In this document: piece after piece, positions 7,853 through 16,178 of the stretch
Layout: the number at the start of each line of letters is the position of its first letter
How positions within the stretch are numbered: position 1 is the first letter of the stretch
Assembly: GCA_016867235.1 (NCBI GenBank)
Contig: VGJY01000003.1
Span: 406-64,405, forward strand
Reading direction: 5' to 3'
Source: Candidatus Tanganyikabacteria bacterium
Lineage (GTDB): Bacteria > Cyanobacteriota > Sericytochromatia > S15B-MN24 > VGJW01
DNA length: 64,000 bases
Notes under the pieces: model-generated
What the model saw: only the letters and a program-made list of their open reading frames with translations
The model's database searches: none
Told to the model about the DNA's origin: nothing
Position numbers and translations under genes: made by a program

Positions 7853-8155
7853 ATGCTACGGGAATCTGGGTACGACCATGATATGCCGAGCTTCCAAGTG
7901 CCGCCCCCCGGGGCCAATACGGGTTCGCTGCGCAACACGGGCAGCGCGAAAGGCTCCTCGGGATCGTCCGTCAAGGAATCCCAGCAGGCCAAGGCCGAAG
8001 CCAAGGCCGAGGCGATGGAGAACGCCAACTTCAGTTCGGCCGCCGATGCGCTCAAGCAGACGGCCGGAGCGCCGATGGAGAAGCCCCCGCCCACCGACCC
8101 TAACGGGCCAAATACACCGATCGTCGATAAGCGACCGAACGGCATCATCCCCTAG
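7853..8155 (+). CDS. Small low-complexity (K/A/E/S/P-rich) protein whose stop overlaps the start of the downstream synthase gene
   Basis: 100 aa ORF; alternative ATG at 7883. Stop TAG 8153-8155 overlaps GTG 8155-8157 of the next gene (TAGTG). No homology recognised; the start is uncertain. Confidence 0.4.
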   Translation: MLRESGYDHDMPSFQVPPPGANTGSLRNTGSAKGSSGSSVKESQQAKAEAKAEAMENANFSSAADALKQTAGAPMEKPPPTDPNGPNTPIVDKRPNGIIP

Positions 8156-10113
8156 TGGTGCCGGCTCCCCCGCGCGACCTCGCCGCTCTCGAGGCCGCGA
8201 TCGCCGGGGTCCTGGAAGCCGCGCGGGTCGCGCCGGGCTTCCGGTCGGCGCTGGCGGGCCACCTCGGACGTTACGCCGCTTTCAGCCTCGAACGACCGGA
8301 CTGGTACCCGGCCGGCATCCCGGGAGCGATCTGCTCCTCGTTCGGCTGCCCTCCCGAGAAGGGCGCCATGGTCGCGGCGGGCTGCATTGCCTACCATCTG
8401 GCCCTCGACGCCATGGACGACGTCCAGGATGGCGACCTGGCCCTGTGGCCCGACCAGTCGGGACCCGAGGTCCTGAATGCCGGCATCGCCTTGCACGTGG
8501 TGGCCCAGGAGGCCTTTCGCCTCGCCGGCTGCGGGCCCGCGTTCTTCGAACGGTATCACGCCCTAGCTCTCGAGACCGCGGCCGGCCAGTCGCTGGATCT
8601 CGCCTGGCGGCCCGGGCGGCTGGCCGAGACGCGGGAGGTCGACTACTTCCGTATCGTCTCGCTCAAGACCGGCGCGACCTTCGAGATCATTGCGCGGGCC
8701 GCCTGCGGCACGGCCGGCGCCGATCCGGCGGCGACCGAGGCCCTGGCCGCCTGGTCCCGCGAACTCGGTACCTACATGCAGGCACTCGGGGACAACGATG
8801 ACGCCGCGACCGAACCGAGCCCGGATCTGGCAAAGGGCAAGCCCAGCCTCCCCCTGATCTTCGCCTACGCGGACCTCGCGCCGGCAGAGCGGATCGCCCT
8901 GGCGAGCGCGCTCGCCGCCTATGCGGATCGGGACGCGGCGCGAGAGACGGTCCACCGGCAGTTGCGCGAGACCGATGCCATGGGCCGCGCTCGCGCCCGG
9001 GTGGCCGACATGGGCCGCCTGCTGGCCGCACGCCTGGACGACCTGGTCCCGGCCGAACACCGGGCCGCCTTCCGGCGGCTGATCTACCGGCTCGAAGACG
9101 GTATGCCCCCTCTGCCCGAGAAGAAGCCGGCCAAACCCGCCGAGCCCGACTGGTCGGAACTCGCGCCCCGCGGCGACCAGGCCGCCGCCGCCCTGCTCGC
9201 CGCGCCGACGTGCCCCGAGAGCTGGGACATCCACCGCTGGGGATTCTGCGGGCACCCCGAACTGGTGGGCGACGTATTCCCGGTCGCCCTGGTGGCGGCT
9301 GCCCTGCAGGCGTGCGGCCGCGACGCTTCCGCGGCCAGGATTCACCTCCTCGCGCGGGCAAACGCCGACGGCTGGCGCTACTTTCCCGAGATGCCCGAAC
9401 TTCCGCCCGACGCGGACGTACTCGGCCAGGTGCTCCAGGTGCTGGCGCCGGGCTCCGACCTGCCGGCGGTCGCGGCCGCGGCCTCGGCCCTGGTGGCGCA
9501 CATCGCTCCGTCCGGGGCGATCCCGACCTGGCTGGAGGGCGCCCCCGACCCCGCGGATTCACAGTGGGGGGGAAACGACTGCGTCGCGGCGATCGCCAAC
9601 GCCTATTACGGCCTGCTGCGCTTCGATGCGGCCCGGTACGCCGAGATCGTCCACGCCGGCCTGCCGCACCTGCTCGCCCACCTCGACCGGCATGGCGACT
9701 GGGAAAGCTTCTGGTACATCCCGGCCTATGCTCGCTACGCCGCGGCGCGCCTGCTGGCCGCCGCCGGGCGCGGGGACCTGCCGCCTTTCCTCGCGGCCGC
9801 CGTCTCGAGCGCCCTCGCCCGCACCCGCGACCGGGTCAAGGCCGAGACCCGCCCGGACGGCGCCTGGAACGGGCCCCAGGACACCGCGCTGGCCCTCCTG
9901 ACCCTGGCGGCCGCGGGCGACGAGGCGACCGATTTTCGCCCCGGGCTGCGCCTGCTGTGCGACTCGCAGCGCGGAGACGGCTACTGGCCGGCCTGGCCGC
10001 TGTACCTCATCCCTGCGCGGGACGGCGGCTACACCTGGTACGGCAGCAAGAGCGCGACGACCGCGTTCTGCCTCCGGGCCATCAGCCTTAACCTCGGCTT
10101 TACCTGGGCATAG
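8155..10113 (+). CDS. Fusion protein: N-terminal trans-isoprenyl (polyprenyl) diphosphate synthase domain plus C-terminal QW-motif alpha-alpha toroid (prenyltransferase / squalene-cyclase-like repeat) domain
   Basis: 652 aa. Asp-rich motifs LDAMDDVQDGD (FARM-like DDxxD) and GDNDD (SARM-like) in the N-terminal half. C-terminal half carries QxxxGxW-type motifs (QRGDGYW, RDGGYTW, HGDWESFW) but no class II DxDD motif. Confidence 0.8.
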   Translation: MVPAPPRDLAALEAAIAGVLEAARVAPGFRSALAGHLGRYAAFSLERPDWYPAGIPGAICSSFGCPPEKGAMVAAGCIAYHLALDAMDDVQDGDLALWPDQSGPEVLNAGIALHVVAQEAFRLAGCGPAFFERYHALALETAAGQSLDLAWRPGRLAETREVDYFRIVSLKTGATFEIIARAACGTAGADPAATEALAAWSRELGTYMQALGDNDDAATEPSPDLAKGKPSLPLIFAYADLAPAERIALASALAAYADRDAARETVHRQLRETDAMGRARARVADMGRLLAARLDDLVPAEHRAAFRRLIYRLEDGMPPLPEKKPAKPAEPDWSELAPRGDQAAAALLAAPTCPESWDIHRWGFCGHPELVGDVFPVALVAAALQACGRDASAARIHLLARANADGWRYFPEMPELPPDADVLGQVLQVLAPGSDLPAVAAAASALVAHIAPSGAIPTWLEGAPDPADSQWGGNDCVAAIANAYYGLLRFDAARYAEIVHAGLPHLLAHLDRHGDWESFWYIPAYARYAAARLLAAAGRGDLPPFLAAAVSSALARTRDRVKAETRPDGAWNGPQDTALALLTLAAAGDEATDFRPGLRLLCDSQRGDGYWPAWPLYLIPARDGGYTWYGSKSATTAFCLRAISLNLGFTWA

Positions 10114-10146: not shown

Positions 10147-10728
10147 ATGCGAAAGATGCGTGGCGGGATCGGGTTCTTGGCCCTGGCGGCCGCCCTGCTG
10201 GCCGGTTGCGGGGCGGGGACGCCCTCGCTGGCGCAGGCGCCGGTCCGGTCCTACGGGGCGCTCGAAACCCGGGCCCCGAAGATCGACCGGTTCGCGAAGG
10301 TCAACGACGGCCTGTACCGCGGCGGGATGCCCGCCGACGGCCAGTTCCGCGAACTGCGCAAGCTGGGCATCCGCACCGACGTCTCGCTCCTGGGAGCCGG
10401 CCCGGCCAGCCAGCGGCAGGTGGTGGCCGCGGAACGCGAGGCCGCCGAGGCGGCCGGCCTGCGGTTCGTCAACGTCGTCGTGCCTTACGGGGAGCCGAGC
10501 CGGGCGCTCATCGACAAGTTCCTGCAGGTCGTGCAGGATCCTTCCAATCAGCCCGTCTACGTCCACTGCAAGCACGGCCGCGACCGCACCGGCACGATGA
10601 TCGCCCTGTACCGCATCGCGGTGGACGGCTACACGGGCCGGCAGGCCCTGGCCGAGATGGAGACCTTCGGCTTCGACCGCGACGAATATCCCTACTACGC
10701 CAAGACCGTGCTGAACTTCGGCCTCTAG
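10147..10728 (+). CDS. Lipoprotein protein-tyrosine/dual-specificity phosphatase
   Basis: Signal peptide with lipobox LLAGC. Catalytic P-loop HCKHGRDRTG (CX5R). Confidence 0.8.
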   Translation: MRKMRGGIGFLALAAALLAGCGAGTPSLAQAPVRSYGALETRAPKIDRFAKVNDGLYRGGMPADGQFRELRKLGIRTDVSLLGAGPASQRQVVAAEREAAEAAGLRFVNVVVPYGEPSRALIDKFLQVVQDPSNQPVYVHCKHGRDRTGTMIALYRIAVDGYTGRQALAEMETFGFDRDEYPYYAKTVLNFGL

Positions 10729-10764: not shown

Positions 10765-11355
10765 ATGACCACCGTCGACAACAAGAGCTTCGTCACCGGC
10801 CTGTACCGGGAAATCCTGGGCCGCAATCCCGAGAAGAGCGGGCTGGAGCACCATCTCAAGCTCCTCGACGGCGGCATGTCGCGCGAGGAGATGCGTGCCG
10901 CCATCATGGCGAGCAAGGAAAAGCAGCTCAAGGACGCCCGCGAGGCCGACAATGCCCCGCAGGCCAAGCCGCGCAAGGATCGGGCGCCCCGGCGCCGCGG
11001 CGACGGCTCCGACCTGCCTCTCCCGAAGGAGCCCGCCGGGCCCGGCAAGCCGGGAGTGGTGCGCGACGGCCCGGGCGGCTTCCTCTGGAAACCGGTCAGC
11101 GACAGCGACGGGAAACTGGCGGTGCTGCTGCCCGAGAAGCTCACCAACAACGCCAGGGCCGCCTACCTCGAGGGCCCGGACGGCACCAAGCTCGAAGACG
11201 GGCGCTACGCCGGCAACGGCAACGGCGGCCGCGAGCACTTCCGGTTCCGGAAGCAGGGCGGGGCGTACCCGCCGGGCACGACCGTGGTCGTGGTCACCCA
11301 GGACGGCACGACCGTGCGCTTCACGGTGAAGGACACGGGCGCGAGAAACGATTAG
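10765..11355 (+). CDS. DUF4214 domain protein
   Basis: N-terminus FVTGLYREILGRNPEKSGLEHHLKLLDGGMSREEMRAAIMASKE matches the DUF4214 pattern (F...LY..LGR.P...G...W...L..G.SR). Confidence 0.6.
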   Translation: MTTVDNKSFVTGLYREILGRNPEKSGLEHHLKLLDGGMSREEMRAAIMASKEKQLKDAREADNAPQAKPRKDRAPRRRGDGSDLPLPKEPAGPGKPGVVRDGPGGFLWKPVSDSDGKLAVLLPEKLTNNARAAYLEGPDGTKLEDGRYAGNGNGGREHFRFRKQGGAYPPGTTVVVVTQDGTTVRFTVKDTGARND

Positions 11356-11370: not shown

Positions 11371-13065
11371 CTACAGCCTGAGCTCGGCCCGCAACGCGCT
11401 CAGTTTCGAGCCGAGTTCCTCGTCGGTCATGGCCTTGAAGCGCTCGGGCAGGAGCCGCCGGCTCGAACACTCGAAGACCGCCAGGAGCTCCATGAAGTCG
11501 ATCATCTTGCGGTTGCGATTCGGGACGAAGTCGGCGATGGCGTCGAGCAGATCCTCTTCGGTCATCTTGCGCGACCGCTCGGCGGCGAACTCGTCGGCCA
11601 GCAGCAGCAGGGCCTCTATCTCGGCGGCCGAGTAGCCGTCCGTGCGGGCGCACGCCTGCTCCCACGGGAAGGGCTCGCGGTCGATCCGATGCTTGCGGAC
11701 CTGCGCCTCGAAGATCAGTTGCCGCTCGGCCGCGGACTGCGGGAAGAAGAACGGGATCTTGCGATCGAACCGCCCGGGCCGCTTGAGGTCGATGTCCAGC
11801 TTGTCGGGCCGGTTGGACATCACCAGCCAGAGGATCTTGCCGCGGTGGCTGGTATCGCTCATGAACGCCTTGATCCGGGCGAAGACCCGCGACGAGACGC
11901 CCGAATCGCCATCCTCGCCGCCGAGCGCCCGGTCCACCTCGTCGATGATGATCATGACCGAGCCCAGGGCCCGCACGATGTTGAGAATCTTCTCGAGGTT
12001 GCCCTCGGTCGAGCCCACCCACTTGTCGCGGAAGTTCTTGAGCGCGAGGCAGGTCAGCCCCGAGTCGCGGGCGAACGCCTCGGCCACGTAGGTCTTGCCG
12101 GTGCCCATCGGGCCGACGAAGAAGATCCCCATCGGCACGTGGCGCCTGACGCCGTTCTTGATCGCCTCGGCCACGCGGGCGAGCTGGCCCTTGACGACCT
12201 CCATGCCCCCGACGACGTCGAGGCCGTGGTCGGGGTCGATCATTTCGACCAGGCCGAAGCACTCGTTCTCGATGATCTCCTTGCGCTTGGCCGCCAGCAT
12301 CGAGATGCTGACCGCCTCTCCCGACTTGGCCGACTGCCGGAGCACCCCCTCCAGCTGGATCAGGCGCAAGCCCGAGGAGAGGCGCGCGATGGCCTCCTCG
12401 GGAGCCTCCAGGCGCGCCGCCAGTTGCTGGGCGGTCTTGCGCAGGAAGGCCAGGCGCTCGTTCTCCCCCGGGAGAGAAAGGTCGATCGGCTGGATCTGCG
12501 GGCTGCGCACGATGGCCTTGTTGATTTCCGCGACGTTCTCCCCGATCAGGATGATGATGTTGTCCGAGGCCAACAGGTGCGGCTCGTTGGCCCAGCGCTC
12601 CAGCGTGATGAGACTGGTCCTGTCGTCGCCGCCGAGCATGGCCGGGTCGTTGGCCGGCACCAGGGCCTCGACGAAGTCGATCACCACCGCCACCCGCTGG
12701 CCGGGGATCGACAGGAACGCCTCGAGCAGCGGCAGGGCGCGCCGCGCGTCGCGGGGAAGTTCGGCCGGGACGGGGGGCAGGCCCAGGATGTTGTGCCGCA
12801 CGTTCAGCGCCGTGAGGAACTTCTCCTTCATCTGCGGCACCGCGAAAGTCAGGCCCTCGGAGATGTCGTAGTACACGACGACATCCTTGGTCTGCTTGAG
12901 GAGCGCCTCGTACAGGAACTTGTCCAGCCGGAGATACTCGCCGCGCCAGGCCACCAGATCGCGCACGTTGTTGTGCAGCAGGAACTGGATGGTCGTGCCG
13001 CTGAGGTAATGGTGGCGCAGTTTTTCGGCCCAGGCGGGCAGCGCGGCGGCGACTTCCAAGGTCAT
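11371..13065 (-). CDS. Classical-clade AAA ATPase (Vps4/FtsH/CDC48-type AAA module) with unknown ~300-aa N-terminal domain
   Basis: 564 aa. Walker A GPMGTGKT, Walker B IIIDEVD, second region of homology [21 protein letters not shown]. 9 bp downstream of the preceding membrane-protein gene. Confidence 0.85.
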
Positions 13066-13074
13066 CAGGCTCTC

Positions 13075-13905
13075 CTAGCGTTCGGCGGCCAGCATCTGGT
13101 CCGAGATGAGGGCGTTGGTCTCCTGCAGCACGGCCTCGGTCATCTCGACGCCCGAGACGATCTGGCCCAGATCGATGCCGAGCGCGCCCGGCGCCCGGAG
13201 CGAGACCATCTGGTCGTTGACGAGCTGGAATGTGTCCTCGATGACCTCGAGTTGCGCCTGCAGGTTGAGGTAGTCCCGCTGGATGGCCTCGATGCGCTCC
13301 AGCCGCTTCTCGAGGATGTCCAGGTTCTGGCGGGTGATGCGCTGCGTGTCGGTGTCGAGGTTGCGCTCCAGCCGGCCGCGCAAGTGGGCCACTTCCTTGA
13401 CGATGGCGTTCTCGTCGGTCTTGTTGAGATAGCGGCGATACCGCAGCCAGGTGACGAGGAGCCGCAGGAAGGCGTCGAGCAACGCATCCAGCTTGTCGAG
13501 TTCCTCGGCGAGCAGATCGTTGGCCACCGCTCCCGAGTCGCGGGCGCCCTGCCGGATGTCGTCGTACAGGCGGCGGACCTCCTGGTAGCGCGTCCCGAGT
13601 TCGGGCGTCAGCGCCGTGACCATGCGCTTGCGGTCGCGCTCTTTCTCGGCCTGCTGCCGCCGCGAGCGGCCGCGCAGCAGGCGTCGCTGGTAGCCGGGCA
13701 CGAAGGGCGCCCACAGCAGGTAGACCCCTTCGCAGGCGGCCACCGCGGCCAAGACCGCGCCATAGTGGTGCGGCACGGCGATGGCGGGGGCGAGCGCGAG
13801 CGGCAGGGCCGCGCAAGTGAGCACGGCAAGGTTGGCCCGCTCGAGGAAAGCGGCCTTGACTCCTTCCCAGTAGGTGGGACGCCTTACCAGAGGCCCGCTG
13901 GCCAT
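13075..13905 (-). CDS. Membrane protein with two N-terminal TM helices and a long coiled-coil
   Basis: 276 aa. Hydrophobic segments LAVLTCAALPLALAPAIAV / VLAAVAACEGVYLLWAPFV, then heptad-rich region. Sits between pspA and the AAA gene. Confidence 0.6.
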   Translation of the reverse strand: MASGPLVRRPTYWEGVKAAFLERANLAVLTCAALPLALAPAIAVPHHYGAVLAAVAACEGVYLLWAPFVPGYQRRLLRGRSRRQQAEKERDRKRMVTALTPELGTRYQEVRRLYDDIRQGARDSGAVANDLLAEELDKLDALLDAFLRLLVTWLRYRRYLNKTDENAIVKEVAHLRGRLERNLDTDTQRITRQNLDILEKRLERIEAIQRDYLNLQAQLEVIEDTFQLVNDQMVSLRAPGALGIDLGQIVSGVEMTEAVLQETNALISDQMLAAER

Positions 13906-13962
13906 CTAAACCCCTCGGGGACGTCGATCTCGGCCGCCTGCGTCGTCAAGCCGCCATCCGGG

Positions 13963-14703
13963 TCACATGGTCTTTTCGGTGCGCGCTTGCTGTGCCCCCA
14001 GGCTTTTATCGGCCTCGGCGGCCGGCTGGGACAGGCCTAGCTGGATCTTGTACTGCTCGAGTTCGGCCGCGGCGGCGCTGGTCTTGGCCAGGTCCTTGAT
14101 CTTGCGCATCTTGGACTCGACCGACTCGCTGCCGACCTCGCGGGCCAGATCGGCCTGCGCCTCGGTCTTCATGATGCTCTCGCGCACCTGATCGAGCGCC
14201 TTGACGTCCGCCTCGACCGACATGCCCGAGAGTTGCTCCTGGATCGTCAGGCGCGCCTTGGCGCTGTGAGCCCGGGCGACCATGCGGTCGCGCTCCTGCT
14301 TGAGCTTCTCTATCTCGGTCTGGAAGTTGAGGAGGTCCTGCTTGTGCTTCTCGGCATCCTCGGCGGTCTTGGTGAGCTCGGCCTGGATACGCTCGACTTC
14401 CTCGGTCAGCAGGTTCTTCTTCTCGATCAACTGGAGCGCCAGTTGCTCCTCGCCCTGCTGCACCGCCACCGGGATCTGCGTCATGATCTCCTTGAGACTG
14501 CCGCTCTTCTCGGTGAGCTCCTTTTCGAGCTTGTTGCGGAGGTAGACGATGCCCGAGACGGCCTTCATCAGCTTCTGATACTGATCCTGCCGGCTCTGGA
14601 TGGCGGATTCGTAGACGGCCTCCGGGTTGTCTTTCTCGAGGCCGCCGATGAAAAGGCCGAGAATACCCTTGAACAAGTTGGCCAACCTGGTCAGGAAGCC
14701 CAT
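13963..14703 (-). CDS. pspA: PspA/IM30/Vipp1 family protein (bacterial ESCRT-III-like)
   Basis: Protein from the internal ATG: MGFLTRLANLFKGILGLFIGGLEKDNPEAVYESAIQ..., the typical PspA N-terminal amphipathic helix and coiled-coil. GGGAGG RBS about 11 nt upstream of ATG 14703. About 246 aa including a C-terminal extension. Confidence 0.85.
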   Translation of the reverse strand: MGFLTRLANLFKGILGLFIGGLEKDNPEAVYESAIQSRQDQYQKLMKAVSGIVYLRNKLEKELTEKSGSLKEIMTQIPVAVQQGEEQLALQLIEKKNLLTEEVERIQAELTKTAEDAEKHKQDLLNFQTEIEKLKQERDRMVARAHSAKARLTIQEQLSGMSVEADVKALDQVRESIMKTEAQADLAREVGSESVESKMRKIKDLAKTSAAAAELEQYKIQLGLSQPAAEADKSLGAQQARTEKTM

Positions 14704-14804
14704 CTGTACGCTTACCTCCCTCCGGCGCCCCGGGCGCGGTCGGACCAATTATCTCACGCGCGTCTGTTAGGATCGGTATTCCCTGCCACACAGAGGAGCA
14801 ACGC

Positions 14805-16178
14805 ATGGGTGAGCCGATCGCGGCGCCTCGGGGCACGGCCGACATAGGTCCCCCGGACGGCGCCGTCTGGCACCTGGTCGAGGACGTGGCCCGGCGCAAC
14901 TGCTCGCGCCATGGTTTCGCCGAGATCAGGACCCCGCTCTTCGAGGCGACCGAGCTTTTCGCCCGAGGCATCGGCGCGGACACGGACATCGTGGGCAAGG
15001 AGATGTACACCTTCCGCGACCGGTCCGACCGCAGCCTCACGCTGCGCCCGGAAGGCACCGCCGGCGTCGTGCGGGCCTTCCTCGAACACAAGCTGTACGC
15101 CACCGCGCCCAGCCCGCTCAAGCTCTGGTACCAGGGACCGATGTTCCGCTACGAGCGGCCGCAGAAGGGCCGCCAGCGCCAGTTCTACCAGATCGGCGTC
15201 GAGGTCTTCGGATCGGCCGAGCCCGCTGCCGATGCCGAGGTCGTGGCCCTCGCCTACCAGTGCTACCAGGATATGGCGGCGGACCTCGCGTGCCGCGTCG
15301 CCGACCGCCTTGGAGCGGAGCGTGCCGCCGGCCTGCATGTACCGCCCGATCTGCGGGTGGAGCTCAACAGCCTTGGCGACCAGGCCTGTCGCCCCCGCTA
15401 CCGCGAGGCGTTGCAGGCCTATTTCCGCGACCGGGCCGCCGCCTACTGCGCCGACTGCGCCCGCCGGATGGAGACCAATCCCCTGCGCGTGCTCGACTGC
15501 AAGGTGCCGCCGTGCGTGGCGCTGAACGCGCAGGCGCCCGCTCTCGAACTCTGTGCCGACTGCTCGGCGCACTTCGCGGCGGTGAAGGACCTGCTGGCCG
15601 GCGCCGGCGTGCCGTTCTCGGTCAATCCGCGCATCGTTCGCGGGCTGGACTACTACACCCGCACCGTCTTCGAACTGGTGCCCGCCGACGCGCCGGCCGC
15701 CGGCCAGACGACGTTGTGCGCCGGCGGCCGTTACGACGGCCTGGTGGCCGAACTGGGCGGCCCGCCGACGCCCGCCGTGGGCTGGGCCCTCGGCGAGGAG
15801 CGCGCCGTGCAATGGTTGCTCGATCGAGCCGAACTCTCGGCGGCCGAACTCGCCCGCGTGGGCGCCCCGGCCACCGACGTCTTCGTGGCGCCGCTGGCTT
15901 CCGAGGCGGTGGCGGCGGCGTTCCGCCTGGTCCAGCATCTGCGGCGCGCCGGCCTCGCCGCCGACATGGCTTTCAAGGCCGCAAAGCCCGACAAGCACTT
16001 CAAGCAGGCCGAGCGCGCCGGCGCCCGCTTCATCGCCTTGCTCGGCCCGGACGAACTGGCCCGCCAGGAGATCGCCGTCAAGGATCTCGCCACGCGCACC
16101 CAGATCAACCTGCCGCTGGATGCCGAGATCATCGCCGCCCACGCGCGCGCCCCGGCGCGCGCCGCGCAGCTCACCTGA
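14805..16178 (+). CDS. hisS: Histidine--tRNA ligase
   Basis: 457 aa. Class II aaRS motifs and HisRS-specific segments (FRYERPQKGRQRQFYQIGVE, GGRYDGL). AGAGGAG RBS upstream. Confidence 0.9.
   Translation: MGEPIAAPRGTADIGPPDGAVWHLVEDVARRNCSRHGFAEIRTPLFEATELFARGIGADTDIVGKEMYTFRDRSDRSLTLRPEGTAGVVRAFLEHKLYATAPSPLKLWYQGPMFRYERPQKGRQRQFYQIGVEVFGSAEPAADAEVVALAYQCYQDMAADLACRVADRLGAERAAGLHVPPDLRVELNSLGDQACRPRYREALQAYFRDRAAAYCADCARRMETNPLRVLDCKVPPCVALNAQAPALELCADCSAHFAAVKDLLAGAGVPFSVNPRIVRGLDYYTRTVFELVPADAPAAGQTTLCAGGRYDGLVAELGGPPTPAVGWALGEERAVQWLLDRAELSAAELARVGAPATDVFVAPLASEAVAAAFRLVQHLRRAGLAADMAFKAAKPDKHFKQAERAGARFIALLGPDELARQEIAVKDLATRTQINLPLDAEIIAAHARAPARAAQLT

Follow-up and report, generated by a model that had tools for sequence, protein, structure and literature searches.

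A compact gene unit encoding PspA, a membrane-anchored helical protein and a tandem AAA ATPase in a Sericytochromatia bacterium: a candidate membrane-remodelling module

A 64,000-nucleotide stretch of the genome of a Candidatus Tanganyikabacteria bacterium (Sericytochromatia; assembly GCA_016867235.1, contig VGJY01000003.1, positions 406 to 64,405), hereafter called the window, carries three minus-strand genes that encode a PspA/IM30 protein, a protein with two hydrophobic segments (ORF2) and an AAA ATPase. The coordinates agree with those of the original prediction, made from the sequence alone, and the genes lie close together, 57 and 9 nt apart (Table 1). This architecture has already been defined by comparative genomics, and the concept is due to Ravi, Anantharaman, Aravind, Gennaro et al. 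(mSystems 2024, PMC11237479), who described operons encoding PspA, a membrane-anchored 'divergent Snf7' protein and an inactive-AAA+AAA protein.

The ATG of pspA was preferred to an upstream TTG because homologues begin at the same MGF. The 9-nt spacer suggests translational coupling between ORF2 and the ATPase gene. A terminator scan found no terminator-like site on the minus strand inside the three-gene unit; no sigma-70-like promoter site was found either, and terminator-like hairpins appeared only on the irrelevant strand. As the genome has a GC content of 69% (about 69% in the window), this promoter and terminator scan is uninformative. The 57-nt spacer folds no better as RNA than shuffled sequence (z 0.36), and a regulatory RNA structure there was rejected. 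No paralogues of the three genes occur within the 64-kb window.

Table 1. Coordinates of the three genes and of their features in the window
Feature	Position	Strand	Description	Basis or conservation
Shine-Dalgarno-like sequence	14723..14715	minus	GGAGGGAGG, 11 nt 5' of the pspA ATG	read from sequence
pspA	14703..13963	minus	246 aa	ORF translation, PspA/IM30 profile match
PspA tail, aa 220-246	13966..14046	minus	helix AAELEQYKIQLGL, DKSLG-containing linker, terminal EKTM-COOH	alignment of ATPase-linked PspAs
pspA-ORF2 spacer	13906..13962	minus	57 nt; GAGGGG precedes the ORF2 ATG	
ORF2	13905..13075	minus	276 aa, predicted membrane-anchored helical-bundle protein	
ORF2 hydrophobic hairpin, aa 24-70	13696..13836	minus		Kyte-Doolittle; AlphaFold2 helices 23-38 and 46-68
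ORF2-ATPase spacer	13066..13074	minus	9 nt; GGAGAGCCTG context	read from sequence
AAA ATPase gene	13065..11371	minus	564 aa	
D1, degenerate AAA domain, aa 1-272	12250..13065	minus	FLLHNNVRD for the P-loop, DFVE for the Walker B DE pair	
D2, aa 273-564 and stop	11371..12249	minus	classical AAA module, lid and conserved C-terminal helical extension	
Walker A, aa 318-325	12091..12114	minus	GPMGTGKT	G318, G321, T322, G323, K324 invariant
Pore loop 1	12013..12024	minus	K348-W349-V350-G351	V350, G351 invariant; K348, W349 in at least 90%
Walker B, aa 372-378	11932..11952	minus	IIIDEVD	D375, E376 invariant
Second region of homology, aa 429-435	11761..11781	minus	RPGRFDR, arginine fingers R429/R432	R429, G431, R432, D434 invariant

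The ATPase had been predicted to be a 564-aa protein whose C-terminal half is a classical AAA module, and this holds. The protein matches PF00004 at aa 315-439 (E 3e-24, 86.3 bits against a cut-off of 21.2), the only AAA domain that Pfam detects in it. Residue conservation was read from an alignment of 52 homologues, where all the features of the classical AAA clade are present: K324, D375, E376, the sensor-1 residue N418, R429 and R432 are invariant, and W349 occurs in at least 90% of the sequences. This half (D2) retains all parts of a threading motor and is predicted to be active. The AlphaFold model, built with the 52 homologues, has a mean predicted local distance difference test score (pLDDT) of 89.7 and a predicted template modelling score of 0.80, and shows the D2 lid followed by helices 503-562.

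The N-terminal 300 aa had been left unassigned, with a MIT-like three-helix bundle proposed as the thing to look for. The first 270 residues are instead modelled as an alpha/beta core with a four-helix lid, and a profile of the N-terminal halves of 30 homologues matches Cdc48/p97 AAA domains in the PDB (E 4e-7), the alignment running from the Walker-B strand via the region of the second region of homology (SRH) into the lid. The N-terminal half is therefore a degenerate AAA domain (D1), and the same two results exclude a MIT-like domain. Direct comparison of the two halves by hhalign gave a weak match (probability 7%, E 0.005) in the correct register. Across the homologues, the D1 P-loop is replaced by a conserved FLLH(G/N)NVRD and the DE pair of Walker B by D-(Y/F)-V-E. 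Some relatives of about 820 aa carry a second pseudo-AAA copy at the N-terminus, giving three domains of the order dead-dead-active (P0049, 823 aa; P0052-P0056, P0059, P0060, P0067, P0074, P0076; L020:7092-9701); the N-half profile matches aa 6-210 of P0049 with an E-value of 3e-40. The layout of a pseudo-AAA domain followed by an AAA domain, together with the pore-loop-2 stretch at aa 382-400, also resembles cyanobacterial and plastid Ycf46, to which the ATPase may be related.

The earlier assignment of the ATPase to the clade of Vps4, spastin and katanin stands at the level of the classical AAA clade and no closer. Its NCBIfam scores rank CDC48 (91 bits) before PAN (80), FtsH (68) and CdvC (61), and all of them are far below the family cut-offs (TIGR01243, CDC48: 91 vs 803 bits; NF041006, CdvC: 61.4 vs 650 bits); the placement of D2 within the clade is one by profile scores. 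The best PDB sequence matches of D2 are the D2 domains of Cdc48, VAT and AFG2 (E 1e-42). We take the RPGRFDR form of the SRH to be of the Cdc48/PAN/FtsH type and not of the Vps4/katanin/spastin type. Membership of Vps4/CdvC is at odds with the tandem architecture, where a single AAA cassette would be expected, and with a CdvC score below those of CDC48, PAN and FtsH; membership of Cdc48/p97/VAT is at odds with the lack of a domain before D1, the loss of the D1 P-loop and the TIGR01243 score. The protein is not an NtrC-type ATPase, and it lacks a protease domain, a transmembrane (TM) segment and a DNA-binding domain. Judged by its sequence, the ATPase belongs to the classical clade as a Cdc48-like AAA protein of type II that lacks an N-domain; it is not an orthologue of Vps4 and stands outside the meiotic group.

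The identity of the first gene, its ribosome-binding site and its C-terminal extension were likewise borne out. The protein matches Pfam PF04012 (PspA_IM30) over aa 6-219 (E 2e-20, 73.6 bits against a cut-off of 33.9), leaving a 27-aa tail beyond the match, and GGAGGGAGG precedes its start codon. A profile of its subfamily (A4) aligns full-length to the cyanobacterial Vipp1 structures 8qfv, 6zvr and 7o3w (E 3e-20, 76 bits), covering Vipp1 chain residues 1-217, and much more weakly to Synechocystis PspA (7abk/8akq; E 6e-5, 26 bits). By this profile comparison, the window PspA is more Vipp1-like than PspA-like. It reaches 47 bits with the NCBIfam PspA equivalog, which requires 243, and is therefore not an orthologue of E. 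coli PspA. A Vipp1-like PspA is noteworthy in a non-photosynthetic sister lineage of the cyanobacteria. All the ATPase-linked PspAs start with MGFxxRxxNLxxGF, in which R6, N9 and G13 are invariant, a candidate amphipathic helix alpha0.

In the tail of the window PspA, a variable linker joins a conserved helix (AELEQYKIQLGL) to the terminal EKTM, and the tail motif occurs twice (DKSLG...EKTM). With the exception of the L006 type, all the ATPase-linked PspAs that we recovered have a conserved ELExxKxQ helix and, behind it, a terminal K-[TS]-[MLI]-COOH. Of the 120 closest PspA homologues, about 110 have K-x-[MLI] or a close variant (EKTM, EKKL, KKTI, EKTL) at the C-terminus, 71 of these with the strict [KR]T[MLIVF] ending. 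No ATPase was seen on the contigs of a PspA subfamily whose tail differs (APMDIFT...); just three of these contigs have full 5-kb flanks. As a strict marker of ATPase linkage the tail motif was rejected, being present at L098, L099 and L126-L128 beside no ATPase.

The second gene had been described as a two-TM coiled-coil protein, which agrees with our results. Kyte-Doolittle analysis gave hydrophobic segments at aa 24-46 and 48-70, separated by a very short loop and followed by a basic stretch (11 K/R in aa 69-100); ORF2 is therefore predicted to cross the membrane as a hairpin whose two ends lie in the cytoplasm. AlphaFold models the protein as entirely helical, with a long antiparallel bundle (pLDDT 89.9). 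Each of the three proteins has an identical record from a Candidatus Sericytochromatia metagenome-assembled genome, where ORF2 is annotated as a hypothetical protein. A word-indexed search returned only 20 relatives, and a profile search of 1.8 billion representatives returned 2277 at E <= 0.001, nearly all of 260-320 aa. No convincing Pfam match, including Snf7 and PspA, was found in any of 80 members of this family; ORF2 itself has none of the PspB, PspC and LiaI signatures (no Pfam match), no significant Foldseek match (Vipp1 ranked 17th, E 0.25) and an hhalign probability of 0.3% with the PspA profile. Owing to these negative results the published label 'divergent Snf7' could not be reproduced for ORF2, though long helical bundles are hard cases and such searches leave room for distant Snf7 homology. 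The predicted fold tentatively resembles BAR-type bundles rather than ESCRT-III. By operon context, ORF2 corresponds to the 'SIG+TM+Snf7' protein of Ravi et al.

We surveyed the 80 best genome loci of the ATPase for pspA within 8 kb and found it at nine. The order PspA-ORF2-AAA occurs in four metagenome-assembled genomes (MAGs) of Sericytochromatia/Cyanobacteria and one of Myxococcota (L004-L007, L059), PspA-AAA without ORF2 at L009, L010 (labelled Armatimonadetes) and L013, and PspA followed by a 914-aa ORF and the ATPase at L079. Metagenome contigs reached via PspA added ORF2-PspA-AAA (L120) and PspA-AAA with an inverted ORF2 (L103). Distant relatives of ORF2, only 22-30% identical, lie in the orders PspA-binding protein/OmpA-permease-ABC-ORF2 (L084, Thermoanaerobaculaceae), ABC-ORF2-AAA (L087) and OmpA-permease-ABC-ORF2-AAA (L089). 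Gaps between genes are 1-4 nt in L103, L120 and L087. The original prediction had counted a lack of conserved linkage to pspA against the pairing: linkage to pspA and/or the ORF2 family does recur, in Sericytochromatia, genomes labelled Armatimonadetes, Myxococcota and unassigned metagenome contigs, but it is patchy. In a rough, midpoint-rooted neighbour-joining tree, the ATPases linked to pspA or ORF2 stand on deep branches and the unlinked Myxococcota forms make up one large derived clade. Two genomes carry the ATPase and a PspA of the same subfamily at separate sites (L021 on JAXLXH010000001.1 with L126:5001-5708 on JAXLXH010000002.1; L001 with P0303), so that missing adjacency does not equal a missing pair; the PspA tail is EKKL in one of them (STL-CYA2) and QKSLG in the other, which deviates from the strict ending.

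In the Myxococcota clade without pspA, another gene family, which we call U, lies directly upstream of the ATPase at 24 of 83 ATPase loci, three of which are the same genomic place (L012:7319-7954, L031:1669-2361, L066:348-1040 and 21 further loci between L002 and L078). Its products, of about 210 aa, combine a beta-rich N-terminus with a coiled coil, carry the motif RLEDELEDLVGPDGD and belong to no Pfam family. Family U is not a hidden PspA (hhalign probability 0.1%). Its occupation of the slot upstream of the ATPase suggests that the product of the upstream gene is the client of the ATPase, and family U may be an alternative client. Other unlinked ATPase loci have unrelated neighbours (RseP-type protease, SDR, HEAT). 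Several MAGs bear the titles Klebsiella pneumoniae, Enterobacterales or Rickettsiales (L012, L014, L035, L036, L039, L076, L081); their ATPases nest in the clade dominated by Myxococcota, and from this the taxonomic labels of the bins look wrong.

These contexts fit the architectures in Table S3 of Ravi et al. (PMC11237479), whose examples include AEY64320/AEY64321 (Clostridium) and OGG56892 (Handelsmanbacteria) and whose longer operons add an ABC transporter and a PBPB+OmpA protein. The window shares with that system its three components, the adjacent pspA and a tandem ATPase with a dead N-terminal domain ('Inactive-Classical-AAA+Classical-AAA'), and the ORF2 family occurs in the same extended PspA-PBP/OmpA-permease-ABC-ORF2-AAA context (L084, L087, L089); the likeness is one of described architecture. 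It differs in being a compact three-gene form in Sericytochromatia, outside those of their examples cited here, and in that the Snf7 relationship of the membrane protein was not reproduced. Ravi et al. proposed ATP-dependent membrane remodelling comparable to Snf7/Vps4, the functional proposal to which we also come.

Like the eukaryotic/archaeal ESCRT-III-Vps4 and the archaeal cdvA-cdvB-cdvC systems, the three-gene unit combines genes for a polymer of the ESCRT-III superfamily, a candidate membrane adaptor and an AAA protein of the classical clade; shared, too, are the aromatic pore loop of the ATPase and the flexible conserved C-terminal tail of the polymer subunit. The window ATPase differs in lacking MIT, in having a tandem pseudo-AAA+AAA organisation and not a single AAA module, and in scoring closest to Cdc48 D2; between ORF2 and CdvA there is, as far as tested, no relationship. 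In sequence and structure, the ATPase is best matched by Cdc48/p97/VAT, Rix7/NVL and Pex1/Pex6, which share two stacked AAA domains and the RPGRFDR-type SRH. The D1 of Pex1/Pex6 is catalytically degenerate. Unlike the Cdc48-type unfoldases, the window ATPase begins directly at D1, with no N-terminal double-psi-barrel or substrate domain, and its D1 has lost the whole P-loop. With the PspF-PspA system of E. coli and the membrane anchors PspBC, LiaI-LiaH and PspM, the window shares a PspA encoded with an AAA+ protein and with a small membrane protein that may recruit it; PspF, however, is an NtrC-type enhancer-binding protein with a helix-turn-helix domain, whereas the window ATPase is a classical AAA protein without a DNA-binding domain, and ORF2 has none of the signatures of PspB, PspC or LiaI. 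To the Vipp1 (IM30) of cyanobacteria and chloroplasts the window PspA subfamily aligns full-length, in a host lineage that is sister to the oxygenic cyanobacteria; its tail differs in being short (27 aa) and ending in K-T-M. The reviews consulted describe no partner AAA ATPase for Vipp1, and we found no experimental study of this ATPase in the literature.

We propose, with about even confidence, that the three genes are a dedicated membrane-remodelling and repair module of this Sericytochromatia bacterium and a member of the system of Ravi et al., working as follows. The Vipp1-like PspA, with its candidate N-terminal amphipathic helix and ESCRT-III fold, would polymerise at the cytoplasmic face of the stressed membrane. 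ORF2 would sit in the membrane by its two-TM hairpin, extend a long helical bundle into the cytoplasm and act, as LiaI, PspBC or CdvA do, as membrane anchor, nucleator or adaptor, or recruit the motor. The ATPase would form a double-ring hexamer in which the nucleotide-dead D1 ring scaffolds and docks, while the D2 ring, active by its Walker A/B motifs, KWVG pore loop and arginine fingers, takes hold of the conserved, flexible tail of PspA. Threading by D2 would pull PspA subunits out of the polymer, which would thereby be recycled or reshaped, as ESCRT-III is by Vps4. The basis of this proposal is the domain composition, the conservation of catalytic residues, the recurrent gene linkage and the conserved tail; from these we infer that the ATPase forms hexamers, that it is in physical contact with its partners, that PspA is its substrate and that it works in the direction of disassembly. 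The module plausibly works like ESCRT-III/Vps4 although its ATPase is outside the Vps4 family. The Vps4-like partner foreseen at the outset thus keeps the compact unit, the recurrent linkage, the conserved PspA tail and the concurring proposal of Ravi et al. in its favour, but it has turned out to be a tandem Cdc48-like ATPase most of whose orthologues stand apart from pspA.

Several points weigh against this proposal. ORF2 has no ESCRT-III or PspA similarity detectable by Pfam, hhalign or Foldseek. No MIT domain is present in the ATPase and no feature shows where PspA would dock, and PspAs with the same tail occur without an adjacent ATPase at the loci named above. About 70 of the 80 best ATPase loci, mostly Myxococcota with 46-50% identity, have no pspA within 8 kb, and the partnership is therefore not universal. 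Oligomers of chloroplast VIPP1 are remodelled by Hsp70. Intrinsic ATPase activity has been reported for PspA rods (PMC11746142) and, given this and the remodelling by Hsp70, a dedicated AAA motor is not obligatory.

The alternative that survives best, although we think it unlikely, is membrane-protein quality control: the ATPase would be an extractor of damaged or mislocalised proteins, like Cdc48, Msp1 or FtsH, with ORF2 as adaptor or substrate and with PspA sealing the bilayer, during or after extraction, as a co-worker and not as the substrate. The preference of D2 for Cdc48 D2, PAN and FtsH over Vps4 suits such a role, as do the ORF2-AAA pair without PspA visible on the L087 fragment, the ABC transporter and OmpA-domain binding protein of the extended operons and the missing pspA beside most ATPase orthologues. 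An extractor paired with ORF2 sits badly, however, with the PspA-AAA pairs that lack ORF2 (L009, L010, L013), with the conserved tail of the linked PspA subfamily and with an ATPase that has neither a protease domain nor a TM segment. Somewhat less likely still is a pairing in which PspA inhibits the ATPase until membrane stress titrates PspA away, or in which the ATPase is a chaperone that loads or assembles PspA or ORF2 polymers. In favour of such roles, PspA of E. coli is known to regulate the AAA+ protein PspF negatively (PMC7619361), and Ravi et al. (PMC11237479) wrote of AAA+ 'chaperones' assembling sub-membrane complexes; the window ATPase, however, is neither an NtrC-type protein nor equipped with a DNA-binding domain, and it combines an aromatic pore loop with a classical SRH as threading unfoldases do. 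That a general housekeeping AAA gene merely happens to lie beside pspA in this lineage, with no specific functional link, would fit the roughly 70 of 80 loci with other, unrelated neighbours, but is highly improbable given that the linkage recurs in distant lineages with varied gene orders and ORF2 relatives only 22-30% identical, that the gaps are tight (9 nt here, 1-4 nt elsewhere) and that the association was published independently by Ravi et al.

Upstream of the unit lies a divergent hisS gene for histidyl-tRNA synthetase (14805..16178, plus strand) and downstream a convergent DUF4214 gene (10765..11355, plus strand). Also on the plus strand, and likewise convergent with the unit, 10147-10728 encodes a lipoprotein-like dual-specificity/tyrosine phosphatase with a signal-peptide-like start containing a Cys, and 8155-10113 a 652-aa ORF in which a polyprenyl synthetase domain is confined to aa 98-256. 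The C-terminal 300 aa or so of the latter have no Pfam match and contain repeated W-rich motifs (DGWRYF, GAIPTW, DGAWNG, DGYWPAW) that resemble the repeats of terpene cyclases and prenyltransferases; the protein may be a fusion enzyme. An anti-phage defence system was considered and rejected: PADLOC gave only generic AAA matches to IetA (E 1.6e-9, 36 bits) and coiled-coil noise for PspA.

What this locus adds to the system of Ravi et al. is proof at the sequence level that D1 is a pseudo-AAA domain, a Vipp1-like PspA with a conserved K-x-hydrophobic C-terminus, an ORF2 that is predicted to be BAR-like rather than ESCRT-III-like, and a patchy linkage concentrated on deep branches of the ATPase tree. 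How bacterial ESCRT-III polymers such as PspA and Vipp1 are disassembled or reshaped in cells is an open question: the structural paper of Junglas et al. (2024) left open what remodels PspA rods in cells and invokes 'chaperones or PspF', and according to a 2025 review bacteria appear to have no Vps4-like ATPase. With a soluble AAA motor, its cognate PspA and a candidate membrane adaptor, the compact operon is a ready-made system for the reconstitution of ATP-driven remodelling, in which the conserved PspA tail offers a concrete mutational handle, and it is a clean minimal example from a lineage neighbouring the Vipp1-bearing cyanobacteria. It is possible, although we would lean against it for now, that in this lineage, a non-photosynthetic sister of the cyanobacteria, a Vipp1-like ESCRT-III protein has been retained beside a dedicated disassembly motor of its own, a Cdc48-derived ATPase with a degenerated first domain, recruited without MIT/MIM via the K-x-hydrophobic C-terminus of PspA and/or the BAR-like membrane adaptor. 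If true, bacteria would have solved the ESCRT-III/Vps4 problem independently, and their solution would parallel the origin proposed for Vps4 itself, in which Cdc48 lost one of its ATPase domains (Makarova et al. 2024).

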